A DNA stretch of 64,000 bases from an uncultured Thiotrichaceae bacterium (GCA_964531165.1 CAZHEA010000004.1:24476-88475); one strand, 5' to 3'; shown: positions 5,471-55,987, numbered from the stretch's first letter. Notes: generated by a model not told the origin, from the sequence alone. Program-made: numbers and translations.

Positions 5471-6391
5471 ATGTCTAAGAAACATCCTGTTATTGCGGTT
5501 ACCGGTGCAAGTGGTGCAGGTACCACAGTTGTACAACAGGCATTCAAAGAAATTTTTTTCCGCCAGAAAATTAATGCCGCCTTTATTCAGGGTGATGGCT
5601 TTCTTCGTTATAACGAAACTGAAAGTGAAGCGTATATTTCTCAACAACTGGCCAAAAAACGCCATATTAGTTGTTATGGTCCCGACCTCAATGATTTTGC
5701 AAAATTACAGAGTTGTTTTCAGCAATATTCTGAAAATGGTAACTGTGATATGCGCTGTAAAGTGACATTAGAAAATCAGCATCTGCATAATGCTTCGATA
5801 GGTGAATTCACCCCATGGTTGCCTGGGCCTGATGATTCAGACTGCTTGTTTTATGAAGGAATGCATGGTGGTGTGGCGGCACAAACCTGGACCAGACGTA
5901 AATCTGAAAATGCCTCAGCTATTTTAAACGACAGGCGCAAGGCGAATGCCAATGGTGTAAATGCAGAACAGTATGTTGATTTGTTAATTGGTGTGGTTCC
6001 AGCCATTAATCTGGAATGGATTCAACGTATTAATCATGATCGTGTTAATCGTAAACAGTCTGCTGAGCAGGTGACGCAGAAAATTCTTGAGCAACTTCAG
6101 GATTATATTCATTTTATCGTGCCACAGTTTTCGGTTACGGATATTAATTTTCAGCGTGTGCCGGTGGTTGATACATCAAATCCGTTTGATTCTCAGCCGG
6201 TACCAACTGAAAAAGAAAGTATCGTTGTCATCAGTTTCAAAGAGCCGGAAAAGTACGATCTGGAAGATTATAAAGCGCGTATCGCCGGTGCTTTTGTATC
6301 AGGGCGAAAAAATCTAGTCGTGCCCGGAGGTAAAATGAGTCATGCACTGGATGTGATTTGTGCGCCATTAATAGAAGCACTGATTAAATGA
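5471..6391 (+). CDS. Phosphoribulokinase-family protein, divergent paralogue
   Basis: MSKKHPVIAVTGASGAGTT P-loop, YEGMHGG, INLEWIQ, DINFQRVPVVDTSNPF match proteobacterial PRK; several substrate residues replaced. Confidence 0.85.
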   Translation: MSKKHPVIAVTGASGAGTTVVQQAFKEIFFRQKINAAFIQGDGFLRYNETESEAYISQQLAKKRHISCYGPDLNDFAKLQSCFQQYSENGNCDMRCKVTLENQHLHNASIGEFTPWLPGPDDSDCLFYEGMHGGVAAQTWTRRKSENASAILNDRRKANANGVNAEQYVDLLIGVVPAINLEWIQRINHDRVNRKQSAEQVTQKILEQLQDYIHFIVPQFSVTDINFQRVPVVDTSNPFDSQPVPTEKESIVVISFKEPEKYDLEDYKARIAGAFVSGRKNLVVPGGKMSHALDVICAPLIEALIK

Positions 6392-6634
6392 TCTAAAAAG
6401 CACAGGCTTGGTATTTCTAGATAAATTTATCCGCATACCGTCAGTGTGATTTCTTAAGTAAAAAAGGACATTGCACTAATATTTGAGTTTTTATGTGTGA
6501 TGATAGCCCGCATCTTTATCAGTTGCCGAGTTTAAAAATGCGTGATGTTACTAATATATTTTATAAAAATTTAAAAAGTTTGCAGTGTCTACATAAATGT
6601 ATTTTTTAAATTATCAGAAAACGTTTTTACTTGG

Positions 6635-6901
6635 TTATTTTCCAATTCGGACTTCATCATAACGTCCGCTACTGCCGGTGAGTGATACATCATCATTTTC
6701 GGCCTCATTGCGTTTTTTCTCCGGTTTAGTCGAAAAAAAGTGATCAACAACCGAGCGGCTTTTATTCGGTGTTACCATTTTCTGTTTCTCATAGGTTCCC
6801 ATGCTTTCCACGGGTGAGCGGTTAACGACATAAATAATGCCAACACCGGTAATGACACCAAAGATGACAACTTTTAAAAATATGGAAACCGAGTTTTTCA
6901 T
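6635..6901 (-). CDS. Small hypothetical protein with N-terminal membrane anchor
   Basis: 88 aa ORF with hydrophobic N-terminal helix. Confidence 0.6.
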   Translation of the reverse strand: MKNSVSIFLKVVIFGVITGVGIIYVVNRSPVESMGTYEKQKMVTPNKSRSVVDHFFSTKPEKKRNEAENDDVSLTGSSGRYDEVRIGK

Positions 6902-6920
6902 AATCTGAATCTAACCTGTG

Positions 6921-7196
6921 TTAAGCCACTGTATTGACATATTTACCAATAATAGCACTTAAATTAGCATTGCAGGTTCGAGTTGATAGGCTTTTTCTGC
7001 GATGCAGGCTGCGCAGGCGTCTATTGTAAAGTACGGGTGTTTGCGCTCGTCTGCGTTCTTTATTCTTTCGACGTTCCAGTTTGCGCTGTATTTTTGTTGA
7101 GCCGATTGAGTCTTCGCTGGCAAAGGCTTTATTCAAGCGCCTGCGTTGGGTTAATGCGGAGATTTGGTTAGGCTGTATGGTTGGAATATTCGGCAT
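6921..7196 (-). CDS. Small Arg-rich hypothetical protein with ERR repeats
   Basis: ERRKNKERRR...NRR...HRRK and C-terminal IGKYVNTVA; ATG 7196 chosen (AGGGAG upstream), ORF open to 7238. Confidence 0.6.
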   Translation of the reverse strand: MPNIPTIQPNQISALTQRRRLNKAFASEDSIGSTKIQRKLERRKNKERRRAQTPVLYNRRLRSLHRRKSLSTRTCNANLSAIIGKYVNTVA

Positions 7197-7512: not shown

Positions 7513-7764
7513 TTTATGTCTCCAAATCACCAATTAGGGTTGTTATTTCAATGGACTACGCTTTAAAGTTAGACTAAGTTATTAACTAATGCAAGTAACT
7601 TTATGTAATTTATAGAAAAACAGCTGTATTTTGTGACGTAAGGTCGTATTTTGTAATAAAACAACCGACATTACAGCTGTAAAAATAATACGTTATGTAA
7701 GTAAGTTAGTTTAATTTGTTAGATAACGCAAGTATCCTCATGTTTTATATGAAGAAAAATAGCT

Positions 7765-9909
7765 CTAGCTTGGGCCGTTTACGGCTTCTTTTGTGACTTC
7801 GGGTGACTGTTTGAGCTCAATAACTGGATTGCTGGCATCAGTAATGATGATATTGGTTGCGGGTAATGGCGGGTTTTTAGCTAATACGGGTGGCATGCGA
7901 TCTTGCAGGCGCGTGACGGGTTTGTTCATTCTATATTCGTAAATCGCCATATAAGCTAGAACATTGCTGACGTATTCACGGGTTTCGGTGTAGGGAATCG
8001 TTTCTATCCAGCGTACGGCATCCATATTGTGTCGTTCAGGTAACCATTTTTCTACCCGATGGGGGCCGGCATTGTAAGCCGCGGTTGCCAGAACCTGCTG
8101 GCTATCCAGTTTGCTCAACATGCGCTCCAGGTAGCCTGTCCCCAGTCTAATGTTGGTGTTACTGCCCAATAGACTGTTTTTGCCGCGATAGCGTATTTTT
8201 AACTGTCTAGCCATATACCTTGCGGTATTGGGCATTAGCTGCATTAAGCCCATGGCTCCAACAGGGGAGCGGGCATCAGACATAAAGGCACTTTCCCGGC
8301 GGATAATGGCATAGGTCCAGGCCGGGTCTATTTTTCGCTGGTTTGACCAGTTAAAAACGTTCTTGTCTAAATGCATGGGAAACCTTAATTCAATATCATC
8401 ACGGTAACGGGTTTTGCCCATGGTAATAATCGCCCGGTCATGCCAGTTCCACGCCTGTGCAATTTTGGAGGCTGCCAGGCGTTGCTTGTTGTTAATCTGC
8501 TGAATCAGTTTATGCCATTCACGTCTGGCCGATAGCGTTTCTCCCATAAAATAAAACTCCCGGGCGCGTATCGCAGCGGGCTGTTTAAAAACGCTGTTCA
8601 TGACGTCTGGCGAAGGTTCTACTGGTTTTTCTTCAAATGCATAGGGCAGGCTCAGGTGGTCTGCAGCGAGAAAGCCGTAGTAGCTGCGCTTTTGAGACAA
8701 GTATTGATATATGCCCAGTGCATCATTTTCATTGCCTATTTGTTCATTGGCATGGGCCCACCAGTATTGCCAGCGATAATCTGACTGGTTGTGAGTACTT
8801 AAATCGCTGATGCTGTTGAGTACCTGTTGCCAGTCACCCTGGCGGATTGCGGTGCGAATACGCCATTCTTTAACGGCTTTATCTGCATAGGCATCAGGTA
8901 TTCTAGCTAGCCACAGTCCGGCATCCGGCATATGTTTGCGTGCCAGGCGCAAACCGAAGTGACGGATGAGTTCAGCATGTTGTTGTTGGCTAAAATGCGT
9001 CGGCAGGATTTGCTGGTTAAGCTGGTAATAGGCGGCGATGGCCTGGTCGATATCTTTATAGCTCAGTCGCATTAAACCATGTTGTAAAATCGCCATCTTA
9101 TCTGGGTGCTGAATATTGAGCATTTCGGCTGTGGTAACCAGTTGTGGCGATTTATGAATTTTTACCCATTTGCGTGCAATCTGCGCATCCTTAGCGGGCA
9201 TTGATTTAATCAGAAAGCGCGCCAGCCGGTGGTTATTAACTGACATTGCAAGTGTGAATCGCTGCCAGATGATTTGTGGTGACTGTTTTCCTGCATGCTG
9301 CCATTGTTTGAAAACTACATCGCAGGCCTTAGGTAGTGAGCTGGCGGATAGCCATAAATTTTCTATTTTTGGGTAGGCAATGGATTGTTGTTGAGTGTGT
9401 AAAAGAGCATTGAGGTATCTGCATTGAGCGGTTACGCCATAACCCGGCTGATAAATATCGATCAACCGCTGCCAGTTTTTATTGCGGGCGGCATGTTTAA
9501 TCAGCTTGCTACGAAAGCGGTTGCCAATCACCGTGTCTTCATTAGCCTGTAAAAAATGGTGAATCTGCCGGTTTGTTAAAACGGCGGGCTTAAACATTAA
9601 TGCATTGTATTGCAGGTAAGGTTGTAGAGGATAGTCTCTTAATTTGGCTGAAAGCTGGCGGAATTTATAATAATGGTGGTCTTTGTAAGCCTGCTGAGCC
9701 TGTTGATAGAGCTTGCGCTGATTGGCGAGCTGTAAGCTTTGCTGTGATGTCTGGCTGCTTGATAAGTTAAGCAAATCCAAATTGGTGGAAGCGTAGCTTG
9801 CAGAAAATACGCCCGGTAGCATCACGCCCGATAGCATCGCTAAGGGTAGCCACAGGCTAGAACGAAGAACGGACAGTAAAGCAGATGCTTGATGTCGTTG
9901 TTTTTGCAT
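7765..9909 (-). CDS. slt: Soluble lytic murein transglycosylase Slt70
   Basis: IIRRESAF, GAMGLMQLMP, AAYNAGP, IETIPYTETREYV; superhelical N-terminal region; start re-assigned to ATG 9909. Confidence 0.93.
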   Translation of the reverse strand: MQKQRHQASALLSVLRSSLWLPLAMLSGVMLPGVFSASYASTNLDLLNLSSSQTSQQSLQLANQRKLYQQAQQAYKDHHYYKFRQLSAKLRDYPLQPYLQYNALMFKPAVLTNRQIHHFLQANEDTVIGNRFRSKLIKHAARNKNWQRLIDIYQPGYGVTAQCRYLNALLHTQQQSIAYPKIENLWLSASSLPKACDVVFKQWQHAGKQSPQIIWQRFTLAMSVNNHRLARFLIKSMPAKDAQIARKWVKIHKSPQLVTTAEMLNIQHPDKMAILQHGLMRLSYKDIDQAIAAYYQLNQQILPTHFSQQQHAELIRHFGLRLARKHMPDAGLWLARIPDAYADKAVKEWRIRTAIRQGDWQQVLNSISDLSTHNQSDYRWQYWWAHANEQIGNENDALGIYQYLSQKRSYYGFLAADHLSLPYAFEEKPVEPSPDVMNSVFKQPAAIRAREFYFMGETLSARREWHKLIQQINNKQRLAASKIAQAWNWHDRAIITMGKTRYRDDIELRFPMHLDKNVFNWSNQRKIDPAWTYAIIRRESAFMSDARSPVGAMGLMQLMPNTARYMARQLKIRYRGKNSLLGSNTNIRLGTGYLERMLSKLDSQQVLATAAYNAGPHRVEKWLPERHNMDAVRWIETIPYTETREYVSNVLAYMAIYEYRMNKPVTRLQDRMPPVLAKNPPLPATNIIITDASNPVIELKQSPEVTKEAVNGPS

Positions 9910-43847: not shown

Positions 43848-44819
43848 ATGAATGTAAGTCGATTGTATGAATTAATGCGGGATACTGAGTTAGCTGCATG
43901 GTTAAATGTATTAGACGCACAGATTAGTAAAGGTTTGTGTAATGATACTTATGGGAAGCTAGATAACTGGCAGGCGGCTATAAAGGAACTGCCTGAATTG
44001 AGTTCTTCAAAAATTGATTTAAACGCTGATAAAGTATCGGTGTTTTCAGAAAATAAATTACAGAGTGTCGCCAAAGAAAATTTAAAAAACACCCTAAAAA
44101 AACTTATGCCATGGAGAAAAGGGCCATATTTTATACATGGAGTTGATATTGATACTGAATGGCGATCGGATTTTAAGTGGCAACGGTTGTCTGAAAAAAT
44201 AAAGCCACTACAGGGAAAAACGGTGCTGGATGTTGGTTGCGGAAACGGTTATCACAGTTGGCGCATGCGTGGTATGGGTGCAGATCTAGTTATTGGTATT
44301 GATCCGTCACCGCTGTTTGTTATGCAGTTTCAGGCGCTGCAGCATTTTATTAATGATGATCGTGTTTATGTGTTACCTCTGGGGATTGAAGCGGTGCCGA
44401 AAAACTTGCGTGGTTTTGATACGGTATTTTCAATGGGTGTTTTTTATCATCGTAAATCCCCCATGGAGCACTTATCGCAGTTAAAACAATGCTTAAAACC
44501 CGGTGGCGAACTGGTGCTGGAAACGCTGGTAATAAAAGGTGACGAACTGGAGGTGTTAATGCCACGGGACCGTTATGCACAGATGCGTAATGTATGGTTT
44601 TTACCGAGCAGTAAAGCCATGATAAAATGGCTGCTTCGCAGTGGTTTTAAAAATGTAAAACTGATTGATGAAACAGTTACCAGTCTGGAAGAACAACGCA
44701 CAACCGAATGGATGCAGTTTCACTCATTAAAAGAGTTTTTAGATCCAAATGATAGTAGTAAAACAATAGAAGGATATGATGCGCCATTAAGAGCGGTATT
44801 TACCGCAGAGGCATCATAA
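43848..44819 (+). CDS. cmoB: tRNA cmo5U34 carboxymethyltransferase CmoB
   Basis: PWRKGP, IDTEWRSDFKW, DVGCGNGYH, RYAQMRNVWFLPS. Confidence 0.97.
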   Translation: MNVSRLYELMRDTELAAWLNVLDAQISKGLCNDTYGKLDNWQAAIKELPELSSSKIDLNADKVSVFSENKLQSVAKENLKNTLKKLMPWRKGPYFIHGVDIDTEWRSDFKWQRLSEKIKPLQGKTVLDVGCGNGYHSWRMRGMGADLVIGIDPSPLFVMQFQALQHFINDDRVYVLPLGIEAVPKNLRGFDTVFSMGVFYHRKSPMEHLSQLKQCLKPGGELVLETLVIKGDELEVLMPRDRYAQMRNVWFLPSSKAMIKWLLRSGFKNVKLIDETVTSLEEQRTTEWMQFHSLKEFLDPNDSSKTIEGYDAPLRAVFTAEAS

Positions 44820-46703
44820 GCGGTTATGTTTGTTGGTCAGCCTGGTTCGAATTATACCTGCTATAACGGCAAATATTATTATTAAAGCCGGAAGCAGAGC
44901 AATGTTAATAATCTTAAGTTGATTTCCCAGACTTTCAATGTCAACACTAAGTGCGTGTTGCACATTGCGTAAGTCGTTTCTGATAGAAATATGTTGTGCT
45001 CGGAACTGAGCTATTTCATTCAGCTGCTGAGGATTTAATGAATTTTTTGCAGAAGATTCGTTGGCTTTTTCCTGTAAATTTTTTATTTTAAAACCGATTT
45101 CACTCAGTTTCTCCTGCAGTATTCGCTCCTTTATACGATATTGTTGATCAGCTGCTGCGCGTAAATTAGCCACTTTTGTAAATGGACGAAGTGAACGACC
45201 CCGGCTGCGTAGGTTGATTAAATCATTACTGCCGCTTAAATTTTCTAATGCGTTAATAACAAACTTGTCGTTATCTGCGCGGGGCATGGCTGCTCTTTGT
45301 CCATAAAAATCCTGGAAGTCTACCCAGAATAAATCTCTTAGCATATCTGTATCCGCTACAATAATTAAGTTTACAGATTGTGTTGATTTTTTTAAATGTT
45401 CTGTGGTTGCGTGGTTTCCAATGCCATCAGGAAATGCTGTATCTACCGGGCCGGTTATACGGGCAGCTATTACAAAAGGTATGCCACCCGCAACATACAT
45501 TTGCAACAGTTCTTCGGGACTGGTAAAAAACTGAATGCTGCTAGCATCAATGGCCATAGACTGGTCGCTGGTTTTTATCAGTGGAATAAATTCAGTGCTG
45601 GCCGACGGTGTCTGGCGTAAAATGCCGGAGCTTGCCATTACGATATTCTGCACATTGCGTGTCACAACATCGGATGAATTAAAATTCTGGTTATTTAACG
45701 TAAGCCATGCGACATAATCGACTTCACCTTTTTCCAGTCCACCAACTCGGGCTTTAATGCGTGTAGCGGCTTTGCGATCACCGGCAATGAATCCTTTAAC
45801 CAGTTCAATCCCCCATGCGCTTAATAGTTTGTCTGGAATCGAGTCACGAACAGGGGTTGAGTAGTTATCAACTGTACTGGTGATTTTGTCGACAGATACA
45901 TCAGCTTCAGAGAATGCATCAACAAACATCAGTGTGCGGCCACCGTTAAGTACAAACTGATCAATGGCAAACAGTGTTTTAGTATCCAGATTTCTTGGAT
46001 GTACAACCATTAATGTATTAACCGTGTCAGGGATACGTGTTAGCTCGAGGGGTAATTGCTGAACATTGAAGGAGCGTTTTATCTGACTTAGCATAAACCA
46101 TTCGCGTGTTTTATTCAGGTAACTGTTTGCAGCGCTACCATCGAGTGGCAGTTTTGATATTAATCCAACCGTCGGGCGTTGTGCATTTGTTAAGTTATAA
46201 ATGAGTTTAGAAATTTCGTATTCAAGAATGTCTTCCTGAGAGGATTGAAAGTAACTGATGGTTTTCCAGTCGCCGGATGAGTTAATGCCTGCAAGTCCGA
46301 AATAGGCAAGACTGCCAGCGCTATCTGCGGGAATGCCTTGTAGCTTATAATACATGGCTTCGGCTTCTTCATCTGAAAAAGGTGTCGGGTTTATGATTTC
46401 TAATATTATGTTGTTTTTACTTGTTAATGCGTATTCCTCGAGTAGTTCTTTTATGCGCTGCGCATAAGTGGCTGTTGAGGGTGATGTGCCTAATAGTTTT
46501 TCAGAAAAATAAAATTTTAAGGTAAGCGGTTTTTGTAGAGTGTGTAAAATATTCTTGGTTCCTTCAGATAAAGTGTAAAGTTTATCTGAAGTCATATCTA
46601 TTTTTATGTTTGTTAAAAACACAGTTGATAATAAATTTATTACCAATAATGAAAGCGCGATTGTGAGCAATGTATAAGTTGATTTTAATTTTCTATTATT
46701 CAT
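44814..46703 (-). CDS. GldG-like ABC auxiliary component
   Basis: DMTSDKLYTLSEGT, LEYEISKLI, IDQFVLNGG, IIVADTDML, coiled coil and C-terminal TM. Confidence 0.88.
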   Translation of the reverse strand: MNNRKLKSTYTLLTIALSLLVINLLSTVFLTNIKIDMTSDKLYTLSEGTKNILHTLQKPLTLKFYFSEKLLGTSPSTATYAQRIKELLEEYALTSKNNIILEIINPTPFSDEEAEAMYYKLQGIPADSAGSLAYFGLAGINSSGDWKTISYFQSSQEDILEYEISKLIYNLTNAQRPTVGLISKLPLDGSAANSYLNKTREWFMLSQIKRSFNVQQLPLELTRIPDTVNTLMVVHPRNLDTKTLFAIDQFVLNGGRTLMFVDAFSEADVSVDKITSTVDNYSTPVRDSIPDKLLSAWGIELVKGFIAGDRKAATRIKARVGGLEKGEVDYVAWLTLNNQNFNSSDVVTRNVQNIVMASSGILRQTPSASTEFIPLIKTSDQSMAIDASSIQFFTSPEELLQMYVAGGIPFVIAARITGPVDTAFPDGIGNHATTEHLKKSTQSVNLIIVADTDMLRDLFWVDFQDFYGQRAAMPRADNDKFVINALENLSGSNDLINLRSRGRSLRPFTKVANLRAAADQQYRIKERILQEKLSEIGFKIKNLQEKANESSAKNSLNPQQLNEIAQFRAQHISIRNDLRNVQHALSVDIESLGNQLKIINIALLPALIIIFAVIAGIIRTRLTNKHNRL

Positions 46704-46705
46704 TT

Positions 46706-47440
46706 TCAGTCAGCCTTTTTTATATCAACAATAATGATATTGGCTAACAGCCAACTGGCGATAAAGGAAAAAAAGAAAACAATGTCTTTTATGTCGATGA
46801 TACCTTTCATGATGGAATTGAAGTGGCTTGTAATGCTCATGCTACTGATAGTGCTGATTAAAATTTGCGGCAGCCATTGCTGAAATAAGTCGAGCACCAG
46901 AGGTGTGCCGGAAAGTATAAAGATAAAACAGATTACAACAGCGATGATAAATGCGATCACCTGATTTTTTGAAAATGCAGAAACACATGAACCAATTGCC
47001 AGATAGGCTCCGGCCATGAGAAAACTGCCTATATAGCCGGCAAATATAACCGGGTTATCTGGATTGCCCAGATAGTTTACGGTGAGCCATATAGGGAAAG
47101 TCAGCATGAGTGCAATACCGCTGAATAACCACGCGGCAAGGTATTTTCCGGTAACCGCTTGCATAGTTGATACCGGTAGCGTCATTAATAATTCAATGGT
47201 ACCTGATTTTCTTTCTTCGGCCCATAATCGCATTGATAATGCGGGAATCAAAAATAAATACAATAGAGGGTGGTAATCAAAAAAAGGCACTAAATCTGCC
47301 TGCTCACGCTCAAACCAGCCACCAATATAAAATGTAAAAACGCCATTTAAGGCGAGAAATATGACAATGAAAACATAGGCTAATGGTGTTGAAAAATAAC
47401 TGTAAAACTCACGTTTAAAAATAGCACTAATTATTAGCAT
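46706..47440 (-). CDS. GldF-like ABC-2 permease
   Basis: REFYSYFSTPLAYVF, MRLWAEERKSGTIELLMTLP. Confidence 0.92.
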   Translation of the reverse strand: MLIISAIFKREFYSYFSTPLAYVFIVIFLALNGVFTFYIGGWFEREQADLVPFFDYHPLLYLFLIPALSMRLWAEERKSGTIELLMTLPVSTMQAVTGKYLAAWLFSGIALMLTFPIWLTVNYLGNPDNPVIFAGYIGSFLMAGAYLAIGSCVSAFSKNQVIAFIIAVVICFIFILSGTPLVLDLFQQWLPQILISTISSMSITSHFNSIMKGIIDIKDIVFFFSFIASWLLANIIIVDIKKAD

Positions 47441-47450
47441 GAATAAACTT

Positions 47451-48422
47451 TTAACAATTGGTCGTTGTGTTTTTTTGTGGATCAGGTTGCCGCGTTAAAT
47501 ATCGAAATACATCGTCAAGTTTTCCCGGGATGACAAAGGCCTCTTCAATATTCCAGCCTTTACTGTGTATCATATTGGTGATGGATGTCAAAATGTATGC
47601 GGAGCTTACAGGGTTAATTATAAAGTAGTTAGACTGTGAGTGAAAAGACACATTCGCAACTCCGTTGAGCTGTTCAATTTTCTGCTGAGCTTGTGGCGGG
47701 CTCTGTCCGGCAAACTTCAATTTCACTGAGTTATGTGAAGGTGATAAAGCCTGTAACTCATCTGCACTCCCGTCAAACACCATATTTCCCTGCGCCATAA
47801 TTGCAACATGTTTACAAATGGCATTTACCTCTTCCAGAATATGAGTAGAGATAAGGATGGCTTTATCCTCTGACATTTCATTAATCAGTTTTCTGACTTC
47901 ATGTTTTTGATTGGGGTCGAGCCCGTCAGTCGGTTCATCCATAATAAGAATCAATGGGTCGTGCAAAATGGCTTGCGCCAGACCGACGCGGCGCTTAAAG
48001 CCTTTAGATAATGTGTCTATTGTTTTATGTAAGACGCTACCGAGGTTAGTTCTGTCAACGGCGGTATTTATTTGTTGTTTTTTTTGCCTGCCGGTATAGC
48101 CTCGAATATCAGCAATGAATCCCAGAAAACCTGCTGTTGTCATGTCGCCATATGCCGGTGCACCTTCTGGCAGATAGCCAATCATTTTTTTTATTTCAAG
48201 GGGGTGTTTTTCGACATCCAGATTGTTAACCAGTACGCTACCCGAGTCTGCAGACATAAAACCGGTAATTATTTTCATGGTAGTCGATTTGCCAGCACCA
48301 TTAGGGCCGAGAAAACCCATGACCTCACCTTTGTTTACATTAAAGCTAATGTCATTAATCGCATTGAACTGGTTAAATGATTTGCATAAGTTTTTAACTG
48401 AAATTTGAGTGTTGCCTGACAT
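47451..48422 (-). CDS. GldA-like ABC ATP-binding protein
   Basis: GPNGAGKST, LSKGFKRRVG, DEPTDGLDP. Confidence 0.94.
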   Translation of the reverse strand: MSGNTQISVKNLCKSFNQFNAINDISFNVNKGEVMGFLGPNGAGKSTTMKIITGFMSADSGSVLVNNLDVEKHPLEIKKMIGYLPEGAPAYGDMTTAGFLGFIADIRGYTGRQKKQQINTAVDRTNLGSVLHKTIDTLSKGFKRRVGLAQAILHDPLILIMDEPTDGLDPNQKHEVRKLINEMSEDKAILISTHILEEVNAICKHVAIMAQGNMVFDGSADELQALSPSHNSVKLKFAGQSPPQAQQKIEQLNGVANVSFHSQSNYFIINPVSSAYILTSITNMIHSKGWNIEEAFVIPGKLDDVFRYLTRQPDPQKNTTTNC

Positions 48423-48423
48423 A

Positions 48424-49029
48424 TTACAATCCATTGGTGTCTTTGATTGAGGCTGATGTTAAATCTGCTGGATGATGTTGTGGATTATAGGTGGTAAATA
48501 TCTGTTCTGTGAGTTTTTTATCTCTGAACCATATCTGAAATATCCAGTCACCCTCGACTAATTCGTAGTCTTCATTAAATGCATAACCATCAAATGCAAT
48601 GACCTGGCCAATGCTGGTACGGCCACGAAAAATTCTGTCCCAGCCAGTTGAGATACTACCATCCGGTAATGTCATCGGCGGGTGAATAAGTACCTTGCGT
48701 AATTCTACCGTGGGTTTTTTGACTTCATCTCTGGGCAGGTTCAGTAGTCGATAGCGGTATGCAAAAAAGGTATCTTTTAGCAGAGGGATTTTACGGGTTT
48801 GCTGGCTGAGAGTTAAAACCGGTTTGCTAATGATTTTTCCGGTATTGGTGCTTAAGTCATTACGGACTCGACCTTTTCTTTGTGCGCGGTATATTCCGTA
48901 TTCAAAAATTTTACCTTCAGGCAGGGATGGTAAAACGGATTTTTTTTCTGCGGATGTAAGACTGGATTCGCTATTTTGATTACAGCTGGCTAGCGCGATT
49001 AAGGTTAAGGCAATTAATCCATGCTTCAT
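48424..49029 (-). CDS. Lipoprotein, DUF3859-like domain
   Basis: Lipobox LASC; EYGIY, T.KIP....FAYRY, HPPM, ELVEGDWIFQIW. Confidence 0.75.
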   Translation of the reverse strand: MKHGLIALTLIALASCNQNSESSLTSAEKKSVLPSLPEGKIFEYGIYRAQRKGRVRNDLSTNTGKIISKPVLTLSQQTRKIPLLKDTFFAYRYRLLNLPRDEVKKPTVELRKVLIHPPMTLPDGSISTGWDRIFRGRTSIGQVIAFDGYAFNEDYELVEGDWIFQIWFRDKKLTEQIFTTYNPQHHPADLTSASIKDTNGL

Positions 49030-49125
49030 AAATTAACTCTATAGGTTTAAAAAGTCTGTCACGCTGAATCAAGTGTACTCATTGATTAGCGCGACAAAAA
49101 CAGGTTTTATTTTTAACTAACGGAT

Positions 49126-49824
49126 TTACGGATATTGAAACCACGCCTCGCGGGTAGCCGGTGACAGCCCGTGGCTCATACTATCGGTGCAGTGCGAGAC
49201 CACGCGAATTAAGAAAGCGGTATTTTCCTGTCCCGCAACTCTGGGGTCTGCAATAGCGGTGGCTACATTGGGGTGACCCTCATGTCCCGGGCGTGATGTA
49301 GTGGTTTTCTGAAATGGATAAGCACCGCCGACAACAGGGAAATCCAGCTCAATTTCAAATTCACCCTTACCTTTATTGTTGGTGCTGAATGAATTAGCTG
49401 AGGCTGGAGCCCCAGTAGGATCAACCCATGGGCTGATGGCATTTAAGCCATCGAGTTCAGTGCCGGCTGCCAGTGGTGTTGCGCCACCGCCGGTTAATGG
49501 GCTGCCGGCGGAGTTTAGCCCGGCCTTACCTTTAATACGTACCCAGACAGTGAACAGAGTATTGGGCGCGGCATTTTTTAATTCAACTTCAACTTTGCTG
49601 CCCAGGCCTTTTTGTGATATTTCAAGTTTGGCCGTTGCATCCTGCCATGCATTGCCGCTGGGATCGATCGGGCAATTAGCTTCGACCGTATCGCCGCTAC
49701 CACTGCTGGAGCCGGGTGCACGACGCGGCATGTCATCGTCAATGACAGCTGAACCGGCAAATACAAATTGACTGATGCTTAAGCCAATTAATGTGGTGAG
49801 TATTTTCTTCTGATATATTTTCAT
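49126..49824 (-). CDS. Secreted hypothetical protein with His/Cys motif
   Basis: Signal peptide (VFA), AGGGG RBS, GHEGHP and SHCTDSMSHG motifs. Confidence 0.8.
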   Translation of the reverse strand: MKIYQKKILTTLIGLSISQFVFAGSAVIDDDMPRRAPGSSSGSGDTVEANCPIDPSGNAWQDATAKLEISQKGLGSKVEVELKNAAPNTLFTVWVRIKGKAGLNSAGSPLTGGGATPLAAGTELDGLNAISPWVDPTGAPASANSFSTNNKGKGEFEIELDFPVVGGAYPFQKTTTSRPGHEGHPNVATAIADPRVAGQENTAFLIRVVSHCTDSMSHGLSPATREAWFQYP

Positions 49825-49845
49825 TTTATTTCCCCTAAATTTAGG

Positions 49846-49893
49846 TAAAAAAAATAAAAGGTGATTAAAGACGCAGGTCTTTAATGGCCTTTT
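49846..49893 (-). terminator. Terminator/attenuator-like hairpin just upstream of the RBS of 49824
   Basis: AAAAGGTGATTAAAGAC-GCAG-GTCTTTAATGGCCTTTT stem (15/17 Watson-Crick) followed by T8 on the minus strand. Confidence 0.6.
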
Positions 49894-50048
49894 AAATACG
49901 ACTGAAGGCGCTGGCTTTAGTGTGTCCTACACGAGTGGTTTCCCGGGCTCGGTAAGTTATATCAACAACTCACCGGCCGGGTTTTATTTATTGTTATTAG
50001 ATTGCGTTTTATTGTGGGTTTTTATGTCACGTCTTTAACGCTATATAT

Positions 50049-51644
50049 TTATTGTACAAAAGCTTCGTGAATTACCATCAGCATGCGCGGATCAACGAAG
50101 TCGTCAACGGCAACATTATTACCATTGGCTCTACCCAGAAAAGTAGCAATAGGTTGTGCACAACCGGAGTTAACACCACCCACACCATACGTGCTTTGTG
50201 CGCCGGTTTGTTCACCTGTGCAGGTGCCGTCTGTAGCATCGGCATCTTCTGGTTGTATGGAATATTCACCCACACCACCACCCTGCACAAAACATTCTGC
50301 AGGTGGTACGGCACCGGTTACTGAACAGCCTGGATTGAAAGCAGAAGCGGCAATGAGTAATGTCTCAACATCACAGGCAGTGCCATTAACGCCCGGACCA
50401 CCAATATTTTCACAGGCAATCGCTGACATGCGGTTAGGTCTGATACCGGCAATAACATTTACCCCCGGATCCAGCCCAATGGTACGAGATGGTACGCTTT
50501 CGCCAAAATCAACCACCTGAACTTTCTGGCGGAAAACAGACGGGTTGCAGCCACCAGGGCCAACTTCACCTTCCAGGCAGTTACGTGAACGTTCGCGGTC
50601 AGTTACGTAGATGGTGCCGTCTTCATCAAGTCCCCATGCGCGTAATGAGTCGCGTCGAGATGGGTCATCTGCCGGCTTACCGGGACGTAGATCGATCCAG
50701 CGCGTTACGATAGAGTGATTTTTATCTTTATTGAGTTTGAAGGTTTTCTTTTTGTCATGATGCCCATCATCGTGGTGTCTTTTTTTGCTGCCTTTATTGC
50801 AGCCTACGCCACAACTGGTTTTTTGAATGCCGGCTTTCCAGTCAACCATCGCAATCGCGGCACCGTGAAACATGCTGACACCCATGCCTTCAGAGGTAAA
50901 TGCCAGACCGGCCATACAGGTCCAGCGTGCATCTTTATCTTCAGGTTGGGAATACTCATCTATGACTTCCATGGTTTCCTGATCGAGAACCAGTAAACGG
51001 CTATTGGCAGAGCGCGCAGCGGTTTGATATACCGGAGGGAAGAAAAGATTAGAGGCGTTACCGCTGGAGTGAGTATTGCCGCTGGGGCTTACTGAATCGG
51101 AATTTTGTGCATTAAAAAAGTTAGCATCACAAATAGCCTGAATAATATTGCCATTGGGCATCATCTGGTTACCCAATGGACGAGGCAAAGAGCCCCGGCC
51201 AGCCGGTCCAGTCGGATTACCTAATAGCGGGCGGAAAGAAACGGTGCGAATGGGCGTGCCGTCTCGATGAAACTGCGTAAGTGACTGCTGGCCTGCACTG
51301 GCAATAAATGCATGGCCATTTAAACCGCCGGATAGCACGCCAGTAGGCTTAAATGGACCGGGGCATTCCTGACCGGGAGGGCATATCGGGCCGCCTGCAT
51401 TTGCAGGAGAGAAAGGGTTGGCAACGGTAATGCCTCGTGCGCCGGTTACAATATTTACTTCCAGTACCTGCCCCGGCCCGTTGGCCGCTGCAAACGGTGA
51501 GTTCATGGCATCTGCCATCATAAAGTTAGCTTCAAGACATGCGGGTCCGCCTACACCATCAAGCCCGTGTGCAACGGCATGGCCTGTCGATAGGCTTAAT
51601 CCAATGGCGTAAGCCAGGCCAATTGAAATTCGTTTTATTTTCAT
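50049..51644 (-). CDS. Secreted Cys-rich hypothetical protein, possibly beta-propeller
   Basis: Signal peptide (AVA/H), 15 Cys, HHDDGHHD insert, propeller-like GLDEDGTIYVTD strand motif. Confidence 0.82.
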   Translation of the reverse strand: MKIKRISIGLAYAIGLSLSTGHAVAHGLDGVGGPACLEANFMMADAMNSPFAAANGPGQVLEVNIVTGARGITVANPFSPANAGGPICPPGQECPGPFKPTGVLSGGLNGHAFIASAGQQSLTQFHRDGTPIRTVSFRPLLGNPTGPAGRGSLPRPLGNQMMPNGNIIQAICDANFFNAQNSDSVSPSGNTHSSGNASNLFFPPVYQTAARSANSRLLVLDQETMEVIDEYSQPEDKDARWTCMAGLAFTSEGMGVSMFHGAAIAMVDWKAGIQKTSCGVGCNKGSKKRHHDDGHHDKKKTFKLNKDKNHSIVTRWIDLRPGKPADDPSRRDSLRAWGLDEDGTIYVTDRERSRNCLEGEVGPGGCNPSVFRQKVQVVDFGESVPSRTIGLDPGVNVIAGIRPNRMSAIACENIGGPGVNGTACDVETLLIAASAFNPGCSVTGAVPPAECFVQGGGVGEYSIQPEDADATDGTCTGEQTGAQSTYGVGGVNSGCAQPIATFLGRANGNNVAVDDFVDPRMLMVIHEAFVQ

Positions 51645-51831
51645 TTTTTAATACCCCGTAAAAAATTTAGATGGTTATTAATTTGTGGTTGTTTTAAGTA
51701 ATTCAGTCGATATTAAAATAGCGAATGGGTGATTACATATTTAAAAATTCCACTCTTTACAGTCTGGGTTGTATGCGTATAAATATTTTTTAGATGACTC
51801 TTGTATCATCGAATATAAATTTACGTCATGA

Positions 51832-51863
51832 ATAAGTAGAGGCCGCAGGCTGTGGTTTTATTC
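51832..51863 (-). promoter_or_regulatory. Candidate ECF sigma target promoter
   Basis: GAATAAAACCACAGCCTGCGGCCTCTACTTAT, same -35/-10 blocks and spacing as the motif before the sigma gene. Confidence 0.75.
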
Positions 51864-52180
51864 TTAGTTTTTTCAGGTAATTATTTTTATATGTGTTTTC
51901 AAGCGCTTATGAAAATGTTTTTTAAAATAAATTTAAGTATTGGCTGGCGATGCTGGGTGATTAAGTCTGGATAGGCGGTGAAATTAAAGGTTGGTTGCAA
52001 AGTTTTCAAAATTAATTAATAAAAACGATCAATTACGAATTCTTAAAAAGGCTTTATGGTGTTATTAAGGATGGCATAAAAAAACATAAAATTGTTAAAT
52101 GAAAATTATGCTTTTGTGTGGGAATTTATGTTTTTATGCACGAATAAGAAATGGTTTTTTAAGCTGAGGTATGGGGTAAA

Positions 52181-52918
52181 TTATATCTGCTTCAATGAGT
52201 TAACTTTTTTATATTTCCAGCCATCACGTATATAATCGATAATGTGATCCATGGCGGGTCGATCAGTTTGTACCTTGTCAATAAATTTAAGATTAATGCC
52301 TTTTTCATGTAAATATTTAATGGAGTTTGCACAGGCAATAAAATAAACATTGTCATATTTATTCATAATATCGTTAATCTGTTTTTCAAAAGGAGATGAA
52401 CCTGTACGCATTAAGTCCAGTCCGCCGGCATTGGCAACAACCGCAATTTGCCCGCCGTTGTTTTTGTGAGATTGCAGAAATTTTTCAGTATATGCCAGTG
52501 CGGTGGCAAACTTTTTAGTATCTGATTCGCTGATATGCAGCAATATGCGTTCACCATTGTGTTGTGATTCGCTTAATGGCGTTTCTGCAATAATATCGGA
52601 TTTATATTTGCCAAAATAAAATCCAAATGTCCCTGAACCGAGAGCAATGGAAATAGCGGTTATTGAAGCAACTAATGTCAGCGTGAAATTATGCCATTGG
52701 CTGGTGTGTAACGTATGCTTATTTTCAAATGGCAGTGGCGGATTGTTAAAACCAAGACGGACTAAATCTTTAGCGCGACGTAACTGGTAAACATGCTCGC
52801 GCACCTGTGGGTTTTTATCCATTTCAGTAATAATGGCTTCACTGATTTCGGCGTCTAATTGTCCGTCAACAAAGGCATTTAATGTCTGTTCGTCAAAACT
52901 GTTATATGCGTTCATCAC
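52181..52918 (-). CDS. Transmembrane anti-sigma factor with C-terminal DsrE/DsrF-like domain
   Basis: LNAFVDGQLD anti-sigma N-terminus, one TM, then ILLHIS...VVANAGGLDL...FIACANS...GWKY; coupled to sigma gene. Confidence 0.82.
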   Translation of the reverse strand: MMNAYNSFDEQTLNAFVDGQLDAEISEAIITEMDKNPQVREHVYQLRRAKDLVRLGFNNPPLPFENKHTLHTSQWHNFTLTLVASITAISIALGSGTFGFYFGKYKSDIIAETPLSESQHNGERILLHISESDTKKFATALAYTEKFLQSHKNNGGQIAVVANAGGLDLMRTGSSPFEKQINDIMNKYDNVYFIACANSIKYLHEKGINLKFIDKVQTDRPAMDHIIDYIRDGWKYKKVNSLKQI

Positions 52919-53454
52919 TATTTTACTCTGCGAATAGGGGTGGCGGATAATGGCTGGCGAGTGATGCGGCTGTCCATTTGTACTAATAAGTTTTTTCTTG
53001 CACGGTGTAGACGACTCATTACCGTTCCAATGGGAATTTCGAGGATGTTAGCGACATCGCAATACGAAAATTCTTCCAGGTCAACTAATGAAATAACCTG
53101 ACGTTCTACGGCGGGCAGTTTAGATATGGCGTAACGCACCTGGTTGACCAGTTGGCGCTCCTGACAAATTGTAGAGGGGCCGGAATCCTCACAGGGTATT
53201 TGTTCGTTCAGATCGTCATGATGTTTGTTTTTACGTAAATGGCGATACCATTTATTGTTTAAAATACGGTAAAGCCAGGCAAACAACTGTTCTTCATTGC
53301 GTAACTGAGCACTTTTATCTATGCTGGTGGCAATAGCCTCCTGGACTAAGTCATCCGCCAGCATTCTGTCTCCGCACCAGGCAAGTGCGACTCGATAGAG
53401 TCGCCCGCGGGAATCGGCAATTTTGTTTTGTAATGCGCTCTGGTTTTTTATCAT
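52918..53454 (-). CDS. ECF RNA polymerase sigma factor
   Basis: ADDLVQEA, AWLYRILNN (region 2); FSYCDVANILEIPIGTVMSRLHRAR (region 4). Confidence 0.95.
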   Translation of the reverse strand: MIKNQSALQNKIADSRGRLYRVALAWCGDRMLADDLVQEAIATSIDKSAQLRNEEQLFAWLYRILNNKWYRHLRKNKHHDDLNEQIPCEDSGPSTICQERQLVNQVRYAISKLPAVERQVISLVDLEEFSYCDVANILEIPIGTVMSRLHRARKNLLVQMDSRITRQPLSATPIRRVK

Positions 53455-53456
53455 AT

Positions 53457-53488
53457 ATAACTAGATACCGGTATTGTGGGTTTTATTC
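53457..53488 (-). promoter_or_regulatory. Candidate autoregulatory ECF promoter, near-leaderless
   Basis: GAATAAAACCCACAATACCGGTATCTAGTTAT; TCTA ends 7 nt before the sigma ATG; no RBS. Confidence 0.75.
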
Positions 53489-53521
53489 ATTTAATTTCAA
53501 GACAAAGGCTGACGATATCCT

Positions 53522-54028
53522 GTGATACGTATTTATAAACGTAATAAATGGTTCAGATTTAGTGTTCAGTTCATGGTGTTTTTGCTGATTGTTTTTGCGC
53601 TGCGTAGCTGGCAGGGTAGGCACCATATTCAGGGTGAGGCGCCGATTATTGTCGCGCAACAACTAAACGGCCGACATTTTGATTTGCGTGAGCAGCAGTC
53701 TAAACCAATATTAGTGCATTTTTGGGCAACCTGGTGTCCGGTGTGTCAGTTTGAAAACCGCAATATTGCAAATCTGGCCGATGATTATGAAGTGATCACA
53801 CTGGTATCATGGAGTGAAGGGGCCGCGCAGGTGAGGGCCTTTCTGCAAAAAGAAAACCTGAAATTACCGGTCATTGTTGATGAAGATGGTGAATGGGCGA
53901 AACTTTACGGCGTTAAAGCGGTGCCCGCCAGTTTTATTGTTGATGCGCACGGGATGATTCGGTTTGTGGAAACCGGTTATACCTCGGAAGCCGGGCTGAG
54001 GCTGCGCATGTGGTGGTTGCAAAATTGA
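53522..54028 (+). CDS. Membrane-anchored TlpA-like thiol-disulfide oxidoreductase
   Basis: N-terminal TM, HFWATWCPVC, YGVKAVPASF. Confidence 0.9.
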   Translation: MIRIYKRNKWFRFSVQFMVFLLIVFALRSWQGRHHIQGEAPIIVAQQLNGRHFDLREQQSKPILVHFWATWCPVCQFENRNIANLADDYEVITLVSWSEGAAQVRAFLQKENLKLPVIVDEDGEWAKLYGVKAVPASFIVDAHGMIRFVETGYTSEAGLRLRMWWLQN

Positions 54029-54178
54029 CTGGCTGCTAACCGTCTATAATGTTGTTTTATGCGAATAAATAGATTAAGTAAGAAAATAGATCGTAACTGG
54101 TAAATCCATAAAAAAGCAGTGATAATCCACCGATATAAAAAATATCAATAAGAATGTTAAAACAGGGTAATCATATAA

Positions 54179-55987
54179 ATGGAAATAGAATTAATTCAAG
54201 AACCTGATGTTCAAAGTCTGCCTGGCTTGTTTCGCGAACGATTAAATAGAACCCCCGACCGTAATGCTTACCGGCAATATGATATTGCTAGTCAGAAATG
54301 GACGCAATCGACCTGGCAGGAGATGGCCAATGAAGTGGCCCGTTGGCAGGCGGCGTTTGTGAAAGACGGTTTGCAGCCCGGTGATAAAGTCGCGATTATG
54401 GTGAAAAACAGTCGTGAGTGGGTGGTCTTTGATCAGGCTGCACTTGGGCTGGGTTTAGTGACGGTACCTCTTTATGTCGATGATCGTCCGGATAACGTGG
54501 CTTACATTATTAATCACGCCGAAATCAAAATTCTATTTGTGCAGGATCGTCCCCAGTGGCATCGCTTATTGAAGGCCGAAATGGATCTCGGTGGCCTGCA
54601 ACGCATTATCAGTTTAAAGCGTATTTCAGAGGATGATGAGCCGGATGACAGCAAACTGGAATCATTATCTGACTGGTTATTTGGTTTAACCGGTGAATTG
54701 CAGACCCTTGAGTGTAGCCTGGATGATCTGGCTTCAATCGTCTATACGTCGGGCACTACCGGACGCTCGAAGGGGGTGATGTTATCCCACCGCAATATTC
54801 TGGCGAATGCTTTTGGCGCTGCAGTGTGTAATGACTGGACGGCTGATGAGCGTTTTCTATCATTTTTACCACTGTCGCATATGCTGGAGCGTACGGCCGG
54901 TTATTATCTGCCAATTATTCTTGGTGCAGAAGTTATCTATGCACGTTCAATAGCGACTCTTGGTGATGATTTACAGAATATTCATCCGACAGTGCTGATT
55001 TCGGTGCCACGTATTTACGAGCGGGTATACGGCAAAATTCAGGAAGGCTTAAAGCAGAAGTCATTTATCGCGAAGTTTTTATTCAAATCGGCCGTCAGTG
55101 TCGGCTGGCGAAAATTTTTATGCGATCAGGGACGCGCCGGATGGCATCCTAAACTGGTCTTCTGGCCACTATTAGATAAGTTGGTTGCCTCCAAAGTGCT
55201 GGAGAAGCTCGGTGGCGAAATGCGCATTGCGATTTGTGGTGGTGCAGCGCTGTCGGAAGAAGTGGCTAAATTATTTATTGGGTTAGGTTTGCCGTTATTG
55301 CAGGGTTATGGGTTAACTGAATCGAGTCCGGTGGTGTGTGTCAATCGTCCGGCAGATAATATTCCCGCCAGCATTGGCACGGCGCTGGAAAATACGCAAA
55401 TTCGTATTGCTGAAAAAGACGAGCTGCAAAGTAAAGGCCCCTGCTCAATGCTCGGTTACTGGAAAAATGAACAGGCTACCCAGGATACATTCACTGAAGA
55501 TGGCTGGCTCAAAAGCGGCGATAAAGCCCGCATTGATGAAGGTGGCCACGTATTTATCACCGGCCGTCTGAAAGATATTATGGTACTAGCCAATGGTGAA
55601 AAAATTCCTCCCAACGATATGGAAATGGCGATTGCACTGGATTCATTATTTGAACAGGTCATGATTATTGGTGAAGCGCGCTCGTTTTTAACCGCGGTAC
55701 TGGTACTCGACCCGGATGCCTGGGCAGATATGGCAGTAACGTTAAATATTCATCCGGAATCACCGGAAGCCTTTTCTGATCGTAAAATTGAAAAAGCTAT
55801 TCTTAGACGGGTATCGATCCGTTTAAAGGACTTTCCCGGTTATGCAAAAATTCGTCGTGCCCATATTACACTGGAGCCATGGACAGTGGATGGTGGTCTG
55901 CTGACACCAACTCTGAAAATTAAACGTCCGAAAGTGATGAAGCAATTCGACAAGGAAATTGAAGCGTTATACGAAGAGCACAAATAG
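54179..55987 (+). CDS. Long-chain fatty acid-CoA ligase (AMP-dependent synthetase)
   Basis: YTSGTTGRSKG, QGYGLTES, LLTPTLKIKR. Confidence 0.92.
   Translation: MEIELIQEPDVQSLPGLFRERLNRTPDRNAYRQYDIASQKWTQSTWQEMANEVARWQAAFVKDGLQPGDKVAIMVKNSREWVVFDQAALGLGLVTVPLYVDDRPDNVAYIINHAEIKILFVQDRPQWHRLLKAEMDLGGLQRIISLKRISEDDEPDDSKLESLSDWLFGLTGELQTLECSLDDLASIVYTSGTTGRSKGVMLSHRNILANAFGAAVCNDWTADERFLSFLPLSHMLERTAGYYLPIILGAEVIYARSIATLGDDLQNIHPTVLISVPRIYERVYGKIQEGLKQKSFIAKFLFKSAVSVGWRKFLCDQGRAGWHPKLVFWPLLDKLVASKVLEKLGGEMRIAICGGAALSEEVAKLFIGLGLPLLQGYGLTESSPVVCVNRPADNIPASIGTALENTQIRIAEKDELQSKGPCSMLGYWKNEQATQDTFTEDGWLKSGDKARIDEGGHVFITGRLKDIMVLANGEKIPPNDMEMAIALDSLFEQVMIIGEARSFLTAVLVLDPDAWADMAVTLNIHPESPEAFSDRKIEKAILRRVSIRLKDFPGYAKIRRAHITLEPWTVDGGLLTPTLKIKRPKVMKQFDKEIEALYEEHK

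Follow-up and report, generated by a model that had tools for sequence, protein, structure and literature searches.

A stretch of 64,000 nucleotides from the genome of an uncultured Thiotrichaceae bacterium (GCA_964531165.1, CAZHEA010000004.1:24476-88475; hereafter the window, with positions counted from its first letter) contains, between 48424 and 53488, the gene for a sigma factor of the extracytoplasmic function (ECF) type, the gene for its putative membrane-bound anti-sigma factor, which carries a domain of the DsrE fold, and behind these a group of genes for predicted envelope proteins. Two of the latter, P531 and P232, are referred to by these labels throughout. The genome of the window is called G000, and its assembly is 94.9% complete. 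The features on which the argument rests are the following, in the direction of transcription.

53462-53488, minus strand: ECF-type promoter motif before the sigma gene, GAATAAAACCCACAATACCGGTATCTA, an exact match to the motif
52918-53454, minus strand: ECF sigma factor gene, 178 amino acids, assigned by Pfam and NCBIfam
52181-52918, minus strand: anti-sigma factor gene, 245 amino acids, or 244 if the start is the ATG at 52915
52199-52555, minus strand: DsrE-fold (MTH1491/COG1416-type) domain of the anti-sigma factor, residues 122-240, predicted to be periplasmic
52331-52333, minus strand: codon of C196 of the anti-sigma factor
Between the anti-sigma and P531 genes, minus strand: AT-rich spacer of 536 bp
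51837-51863, minus strand: second ECF-type promoter motif, GAATAAAACCACAGCCTGCGGCCTCTA, about 190 nt 5' of the P531 gene
50049-51644, minus strand: P531 gene, 531 amino acids, predicted to be secreted, 15 cysteines
49845-49894, minus strand: strong hairpin with a trailing U-run between P531 and P232, resembling a terminator or attenuator
49126-49824, minus strand: P232 gene, 232 amino acids, predicted to be secreted
48424-49029, minus strand: DUF3859 lipoprotein gene, lipobox LASC

The product of 52918-53454 is an ECF (group 4) sigma-70 factor, a small protein that has regions 2 and 4 only: Pfam recognizes Sigma70_r2 (E 2e-11) and Sigma70_r4_2 (E 2.6e-14), and the NCBIfam model TIGR02937 (sigma70-ECF) scores 80.2 bits, its cut-off being 42.9; no NCBIfam equivalog reaches its own cut-off. 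The start of the anti-sigma gene overlaps or abuts the sigma stop codon (taGTGATG), and this pairing is kept in nearly all of the loci whose upstream side is present. No family is assigned to the anti-sigma factor, to P531 or to P232 by Pfam and NCBIfam scans. In the AlphaFold2 model of the anti-sigma factor (predicted local distance difference test, pLDDT, 85), three N-terminal helices are followed by a long helix (residues 74-110) and an alpha/beta domain. The N-terminal helices (10-58) may form an anti-sigma domain, with VIA-align Z-scores of 6.2 to RslA and 6.0 to RsiW and a profile match to MucA at E 1.3 only; a paralogue has weak zf-HC2 and RseA_N matches. The zinc motif H-x3-C-x2-C of the zinc-binding anti-sigma (ZAS) domain is not present in the anti-sigma domain, the sole cysteine of the protein being C196 in its C-terminal part, within FIACANS.

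It is this C-terminal part that sets the protein apart. There are 114 homologues of the anti-sigma factor at E<=1e-3, all of about 240 amino acids, and some of them are labelled as DsrE/DsrF family by one source. Amongst 36 that were aligned, D18, H128, G165, G166, N190, F193, A195, C196, G233, W234 and Y236 are invariant (36/36). The profile built from these 36 matches residues 122-237 to the Protein Data Bank (PDB) entry 1l1s, MTH1491, at E 1.1e-14, with the cysteine column aligned: FIAC lies over FCAC of MTH1491, and C196 stands opposite the second cysteine (Cys72) of FCACSN. MTH1491 is described as a homotrimer with Cys70 and Cys72 (PMC5495134). When the model was submitted to Foldseek, 1l1s was the top match (E 6e-8, template modelling score, TM, 0.86 on the target), and in a VIA-align comparison with 48,161 chains it again came first (Z 16.9, root-mean-square deviation 1.8 A over 110 residues), ranks 1-9 all being DsrE-type folds (ST0148, YchN, BT1422, DsrEFH, TusBCD and others), after which Z falls below 8. 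On this combined profile and model evidence, the C-terminal domain (about 122-240) is a DsrE fold of the MTH1491/COG1416 type. As the anti-sigma domain is N-terminal and is followed by one membrane helix, we infer that this presumptive sensor domain faces the periplasm.

The second line of evidence concerns the promoters. The sequence GAATAAAACC-N13-TCTA occurs exactly at 53462-53488 and at 51837-51863, both on the minus strand, and nowhere else in the window at up to two mismatches, a recurrence that is not significant on the window alone (the mean in shuffled sequence is 0.69, and 13 of 100 shuffles reach two). Put as GAATAAA-N16-TCTA, the element precedes both the sigma gene and the P531 gene of the window, and in other genomes the same element is found before sigma and P531 genes in intergenic regions that are otherwise unalignable; the consensus and its spacing are kept across loci, and the spacer sequence is variable. 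The -10 part reads (C/G)(A/G)TCT, which is close to the CGTC-like -10 element usual for ECF promoters. A relaxed form, GAATA[AT][AT]-N16-TC, was counted within 260 nt upstream of each gene type, with random 280-nt windows as the control; the counts omit redundant loci (L001-L003, L069-L073, L079-L085 and L090-L103) and hits that were short or without the N-terminus, and retain both L011 and L051, which have the same sequence. The relaxed motif lies upstream of the sigma gene in 52/66 cases, of P531 in 11/13 and of a gene for a stand-alone DsrE-like protein, described below, in 32/33; an element of the form GGAATA(A/T)(A/T)-N16-TCT(A/C) is found before the last of these. It precedes the ABC (ATP-binding cassette) ATPase gene in 3/8, the anti-sigma gene in 2/60, DUF3859 in 1/13, and P232 (0/9), a porin gene (0/21) and the TlpA gene (0/1) in none; the random windows contain it in 538 of 20,000 (2.7%). 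Because the same motif is kept before both gene types in other genomes, it is most likely, judged from this conservation, that the sigma factor autoregulates and drives the promoter at 51837-51863.

The two promoters differ in their distance from the gene. Before the sigma gene of the window TCTA ends 7 nt from the ATG, and in 20 of the 52 sigma loci, the window included, the first in-frame start follows TC by 8-12 nt, which predicts a sigma mRNA with little or no leader. The P531 leader is of about 80-190 nt and folds no better than shuffled sequence (z -0.97); an Rfam scan of 48000-54300 (E<=1) returned just three sub-threshold matches of eukaryote type, and thus no known RNA element in this leader. 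A scan with the sigma-70 and terminator consensus was uninformative, with 26 promoter-like sites against 22.7 expected. Two further occurrences of promoter-like sequence may be recorded here. At 49998-50022 (minus strand), the 13-nt segment AAAACCCACAATA matches a stretch of the sigma promoter letter for letter, with TCTA 8 nt further on; the GAAT core has gone, and the element, which lies upstream of P232, resembles a degraded copy of that promoter. In locus L075 (genome G186, 7559-7830), P232 follows a 29-residue remnant of the P531 C-terminus and has its own GAATAAA-N16-TCTA, in what is a rearranged copy of the operon.

The third line of evidence is the conservation of the neighbourhood. 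The anti-sigma factor was found in 23 of 41 related genomes, amongst them 21 of the 24 in its own family and 1 of the 16 in the other families of the class, and 56 anti-sigma loci came from a scan in which each species was represented by one genome, with Thiogranum, Thiohalobacter, Thiotrichales, Sulfuritalea and Rhodocyclales among the names. Thiogranum longum and Thiohalobacter thiocyanaticus, which have been cultured, possess family members. Judged by the names in that scan, the family is confined to sulfur oxidizers. In G000 itself SoxB is over its cut-off; dsrA was not found over cut-off in this assembly, which is 94.9% complete. When eight proteins of the window were mapped on 68 loci, and all open reading frames (ORFs) were clustered, the sigma/anti-sigma pair proved to be the constant unit, accompanied by one of two neighbour sets. 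The first consists of P531 and its followers and is found in the window, L002, L003 (identical in sequence to L027), L032, L034, L037 and L040. The second, in about 23 loci, consists of a stand-alone DsrE-like protein of 145-185 amino acids and then a protein of about 440 amino acids that is Porin_O_P/Porin_4-like. The stand-alone protein has a signal peptide and the motif KPFAE, keeps the cysteine in FxAC.NT, and is 27% identical to the sensor domain. A second DsrE-fold anti-sigma factor, 35% identical over the domain, is encoded in G000 at the very start of a contig (L078, contig C120, 21-728), its sigma gene being off the assembly; beside it lie genes for a DUF302 protein and an SBP_bac_11 solute-binding protein.

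Further P531 loci were taken from genomes found by using P531 itself, which brings the P531 loci to 14 (the window, L027, L032, L034, L037, L040, L074-L077 and L086-L089), many of them kin and not independent. The sigma gene adjoins P531 in 11 of the 14 and a DsrE-type anti-sigma gene is adjacent in 9. In most of these loci P531 is divergent from the sigma gene, and in the window and L074 it is downstream on the same strand; since two orientations occur, the linkage of P531 to the sigma gene has outlived rearrangement. In L016 a distant P232 homologue (6325-6999, 42% identity) is divergent from a sigma/anti-sigma pair and P531 is on another contig of that genome, so that P232-like genes can be linked to the pair without P531. 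A good deal of the initial annotation of this DNA, which had been made by a model from the sequence alone, is borne out by these comparisons. It had read the locus as an ECF sigma coupled to an anti-sigma whose outer domain is DsrE-like with a single cysteine, and had named a profile or structural confirmation of that domain, and the conservation of the neighbourhood, as checks; the fold is agreed on by profile, Foldseek and VIA-align, the cysteine does not vary, and the pair and its link to P531 are conserved. Its further statements, that one promoter-like motif precedes both the sigma gene and the operon for secreted proteins, that ECF sigma factors typically control themselves and their neighbours, and that two downstream secreted proteins are of unknown family, agree respectively with the exact and conserved motif, with the most likely role of the sigma factor given above, and with what follows.

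P531 has an N-terminus like that of a signal peptide and 15 cysteines, of which nine are invariant and two more nearly so; nine being an odd number, one cysteine may be free. Its sole Pfam hit is NHL at E 0.18, there is no NCBIfam match, and a PDB profile search gave nothing below E 0.1. It is rare (4 of 300 genomes sampled across the class), and its profile found, amongst 1.84 billion representatives, 56 proteins at E<=1e-3, four of which span the full profile, the rest being fragments, with no member of other families among the matches. The P531 model has a pLDDT of 75 and a predicted TM of 0.79, with the N-terminal 38 residues at pLDDT <50, and VIA-align gives Z-scores of 19.6-22.7 to the YWTD, NHL and DFPase/SMP-30 propellers over about 240-270 of the 531 residues. 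As modelled, P531 is a six-bladed beta-propeller with long insertions that make up about half of the protein. Foldseek matched the model to generic propellers only (TM <=0.40 on the query); nitrous-oxide reductase and arylsulfotransferase are among these, ranked no better than unrelated ones, and no connection with either is proposed. In a protein atlas, used for leads only, P531 is near SMP-30/NHL-like clusters at 0.93 and P232 near unnamed clusters. P232 also begins like a signal peptide; it has no Pfam or NCBIfam match, and with nothing below E 0.1 in a PDB profile search no relatives of known function were found. P531 is strongly conserved: on one contig it is 88% identical where the anti-sigma factor is 69% identical. 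Over 49000-51500, P531 and P232 have a G+C content of 0.47-0.52, whereas the ABC genes, the spacers and the anti-sigma gene range from 0.34 to 0.43, and the window-type system is present in 2 of 12 genomes of the genus; this contrast and the patchy spread suggest that the P531/P232 region was acquired by transfer.

The spacer between P531 and P232 (49825-50048, minus strand) forms two strong hairpins (z -3.9 for the spacer as a whole, which none of 200 shuffles equalled), the second of which (about 49845-49894) is followed by a U-run directly before the ribosome-binding site of P232. This hairpin may be an internal attenuator, and, given the hairpin and U-run, P232 may be expressed at a lower level than P531. 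The gene that follows P232 encodes a protein with a DUF3859 domain (PF12975, 33.9 bits against a cut-off of 24, E 3.4e-8), and the DUF3859 proteins all have a lipobox. DUF3859 comes after P531 in 13 of the 14 P531 loci, the fourteenth (L037) ending at a contig edge; 8 of these loci have P232, in 5 it was not detected, and 1 is cut. The constant partner of P531 is thus the DUF3859 lipoprotein (13/14 loci) and not P232 (8/14). A complex prediction for mature P531 with the DUF3859 domain scored 0.58, against 0.02 for the best of three controls; the runs agree in at least 42% of contacts and the partner has a pLDDT of at least 82. Of 80 solved complexes 58 attain the mark used, as do 2 of 110 mismatched pairs; with a score of 0.60 or less, however, just 7 of the 80 attain it, along with both of those mismatches. 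Since self-made alignments were used for this prediction, the calibration applies roughly. The prediction gives weak support, no more than a hint, that the lipoprotein docks the P531 propeller. Three genes for an ABC transporter complete the group.

47451-48434, minus strand: ABC ATPase gene
46706-47440, minus strand: ABC-2 permease gene
44814-46703, minus strand: ABC_transp_aux (GldG-like) gene

These three (44814-48434) overlap or lie no more than 10 nt apart, from each other and likewise from the DUF3859 gene, and the GldG-like gene is present in 7 of the 13 P531 loci mapped.

The reading that we prefer, and in which we have moderate confidence, is that of an ECF module with a DsrE-fold sensor that drives its own operon and the P531 operon. 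The N-terminal domain of the anti-sigma factor would hold the sigma factor in the cytoplasm, with the DsrE-fold domain and its invariant cysteine and histidine exposed to the periplasm. A periplasmic signal would then free the sigma factor. The likeliest signal is modification of C196 by a reactive sulfur species, be it a persulfide, a polysulfide or some other thiol-reactive anion, or else a change of oligomer in what is a trimer-forming fold. Regulated proteolysis is the usual release route for anti-sigma factors of this type. The free sigma factor would transcribe from (G)GAATA(A/T)(A/T)-N16-TCT(A/C) promoters both its own operon, from a promoter that abuts the start codon, and a second operon of P531, P232, the DUF3859 lipoprotein and probably the GldG-type ABC transporter; in the sister systems the target would be the secreted stand-alone DsrE-like protein and then the anion-type porin. 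The products of the regulon would act in the envelope on the signal compound or on its consequences. The combination in the sister regulon of a secreted DsrE-like protein with an anion-type porin, and the confinement of the family to sulfur oxidizers, argue that what the family handles is a sulfur compound of the periplasm, probably an anion.

Several observations weigh against this interpretation. The Pfam model for DsrE (PF02635) gives no match to the anti-sigma factor at E<=1, and the stand-alone DsrE-like protein is under the cut-off of that model (19.9 vs 22.7 bits). A function for the MTH1491/COG1416 branch is absent from the literature searched, and sulfur carriage is extrapolated from DsrE and TusD. 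The invariant histidine beside the cysteine in the sensor domain would suit a metal site equally. As to the promoter, the motif was first seen in the window and was relaxed after other loci had been viewed, so that it is partly fitted and the counts are somewhat favourable, and many of the loci counted are kin. The strict motif has six hits genome-wide in G000 against 4.6 expected, two of them at the locus; of the other four, three are not followed within 450 nt by the start of any ORF of 60 amino acids or more, and behind the fourth there is just a doubtful ORF of 95 amino acids. With genome-wide hits near to chance and no convincing genes downstream of them, the regulon looks very small and the motif alone does not define it. 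Finally, on the anti-sigma tree P531-linked systems are intermixed with porin-linked ones, the P531 label requiring at least three changes, and in two Thiogranum loci (L086, 5144-6761, and L088, 9127-9549) the sigma gene is divergent from P531 without an anti-sigma gene behind it. Since the locus types are mixed on the tree and these two sigma factors lack an anti-sigma factor of their own, paralogous systems with one promoter type in common are likely to cross-talk. The next gene on the sigma strand in L086 is Crp/Fnr-like by Pfam, and L088 has a homologue in the same place.

Amongst the alternatives, one retains the module and changes the signal. The sensor could read a metal such as copper through Cys196 and His128, and the regulon could be a periplasmic metal-handling set in which P531 would offer a 'histidine brace'-like N-terminal histidine adjoining a Met-rich segment, and P232 a His-Cys-x-Asp-x3-His segment. 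Copper, a metal bound by histidine braces and Met-rich loops, is both scarce and toxic in sulfidic water. All 33 P531 homologues aligned keep A25-H26, and a signal-peptidase site of the Ala-x-Ala type precedes H26, so that mature P531 is predicted to start at His26, which is the basis of this alternative; the segment after this histidine, C36-LEANFMMADAMN, is Met-rich. In P232, C51 and a C-terminal H211-C212-x-D214-x3-H218 are invariant, within a segment, SHC-x-D-x3-HGLSP-x2-REAWFQYP, that is nearly so, and the sensor domain has H128 and C196, neither of which varies. Against this, neither protein matches a copper protein family in sequence or fold, P531 resembling only generic six-bladed propellers and P232 having no PDB profile match, and the geometry of a site at the P531 N-terminus cannot be read from a model of such low confidence there. 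The histidine position is glutamine in the stand-alone DsrE-like proteins (VLQISD), which is ill-suited to a shared Cys/His site, and the sister regulon, with its secreted DsrE-like protein and anion-type porin, points to an anion. We consider a metal signal unlikely.

A different possibility is that the DsrE-fold domain serves for docking and is no chemical sensor: in mixed trimers with secreted partners (stand-alone DsrE-like proteins or regulon products) it would signal how abundant or how well folded these are, a form of partner-switching or of feedback on envelope proteins. The homology of the sensor domain to the product of a neighbouring target gene in about 23 loci would fit this, as would the homotrimeric state given for the nearest solved relative in PMC5495134. 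On the other hand, no stand-alone DsrE-like gene is near the window-type loci; in G000 just one, a distant one (33% identity, contig C135), was found, in an assembly that is 94.9% complete and that breaks off within the second system. That a single cysteine is strictly invariant in the sensor and the stand-alone proteins alike suggests that chemistry takes place there. We consider a docking role unlikely.

The remaining alternative arises from the genes on the other side of the sigma promoter.

53522-54028, plus strand: TlpA/ResA-like thioredoxin-fold gene, CPVC, 168 amino acids
54179-55987: acyl-CoA synthetase gene, next after the TlpA-like gene

The TlpA-like protein has the motif WATWCPVC, an N-terminal hydrophobic stretch and matches to AhpC-TSA (E 3.6e-19) and Redoxin (E 1.8e-18), all NCBIfam equivalogs being under their cut-offs. 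The initial annotation had made this divergent, membrane-anchored CxxC protein a part of the system, in which it would reset the sensor or fold the 15-cysteine target, and had taken P531 and P232 for an enzyme pair. The gene is indeed present, divergent from the sigma gene and 67 bp from it; its membership of the system did not survive comparison. In none of the 67 other loci does a TlpA homologue adjoin the sigma/anti-sigma pair, no ECF motif lies on the TlpA strand (0/1), and all 13 relatives examined have their TlpA orthologue (44-65% identity) next to an acyl-CoA synthetase gene, in 3.5-kb loci that contain no sigma gene; in genome G011, which has a window-type system, some 190 kb separate the orthologue from the sigma/P531 locus. 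Given no conserved linkage to the pair, no shared motif, and the association kept with the acyl-CoA synthetase gene, the TlpA-like gene is judged to lie outside the system, as a bystander that belongs with the acyl-CoA synthetase gene (the pair spanning 53522-55987) and became a neighbour by chance of insertion. That TlpA is a working part and P531 and P232 an enzyme pair, as the 67-bp distance, the abundance of cysteine in P531 and weak TlpA-like matches (27-29% identity) 2-6 kb from P531 or P232 in L075 and L087 might suggest, is very improbable in view of these counts, of at least eight other TlpA-like genes in G000, and of the 13 loci intact on the P232 flank of P531, all of which have DUF3859 there and 5 of which showed no P232.

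To return to the preferred reading of a sulfur-responsive ECF module, a more specific and speculative version of it can be put forward, which we regard as doubtful. There could be a periplasmic persulfide relay, in which DsrE-like carriers and the sensor swap sulfane sulfur or form mixed trimers and the loading of one cysteine sets the sigma factor; P531, held on DUF3859, could then be a new envelope enzyme that acts on polysulfide, polythionate or elemental sulfur by means of its N-terminal histidine and free cysteine. To our knowledge, little has been established about how sulfur oxidizers sense reduced sulfur outside the cytoplasm, and such a relay, if it exists, would fill part of the gap in what is understood of their extracytoplasmic sulfur handling. 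Should the sulfur reading be wrong, the anti-sigma factor would still represent a new type of sensor domain for ECF signalling. The locus, for which more than 100 homologues are known, offers a compact arrangement of one cysteine, one histidine, one membrane helix and one sigma factor, a clearly defined promoter, and two small alternative regulons, either a periplasmic DsrE-like protein with a porin or a strongly conserved protein family without detectable relatives. The module would be easy to move to a reporter host, where it could reveal the signal or serve as an orthogonal switch.

The components can each be set against what is known. The core fold of P531, as modelled, is shared with six-bladed propellers (YWTD of LRP6, NHL, and the SMP-30/DFPase lactonases), from which P531 differs in having no sequence relation to them, in that about half of it is insertions, and in its nine invariant cysteines and invariant, predicted mature N-terminal histidine. 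The sensor domain shares its fold with the DsrE/DsrF-like superfamily (1l1s, ST0148 2pd2, YchN 1jx7, DsrEFH 2hy5 and TusBCD 2d1p; Z 16.9 to 10.7), with C196 in the cysteine column of MTH1491. The solved relatives are soluble, cytoplasmic proteins, and DsrE-type proteins are treated as cytoplasmic sulfur carriers, whereas the domain here is behind an anti-sigma domain and a membrane helix, and the sister genes encode a signal peptide. With class I anti-sigma factors (RsiW/RslA/RseA-like) the protein has in common a helical N-terminal domain, as modelled, one predicted membrane helix and a gene directly behind that of the sigma factor; it differs in the lack of an N-terminal Cys/zinc motif and in the DsrE-fold extracytoplasmic domain. 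In the literature searched there was no anti-sigma factor with a DsrE domain, no ECF-controlled periplasmic DsrE-like protein and nothing on DUF3859, although supplementary neighbourhood tables may list the architecture. The type of sensor domain is thus apparently undescribed for ECF/anti-sigma systems; the kind of system is itself well known.

The nearest functional precedent appears to be the ECF26 pair RpoE1/RpoE4 of Sinorhizobium meliloti, which respond to sulfite-generating compounds (thiosulfate, taurine, with sulfite as the probable signal) (PMC3511301). As described there, the sigma factor is co-transcribed with a membrane anti-sigma factor, is autoregulated, has a tiny periplasmic regulon and is activated by sulfur compounds, as would be the case here on the preferred reading. 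The same paper gives the anti-sigma factors of RpoE1/RpoE4 a COG5662 domain, where the locus here has the DsrE fold, and names as targets the sulfite dehydrogenase SorT, a cytochrome c and pseudoazurin (PMC3511301), where the window would have P531 and its followers.

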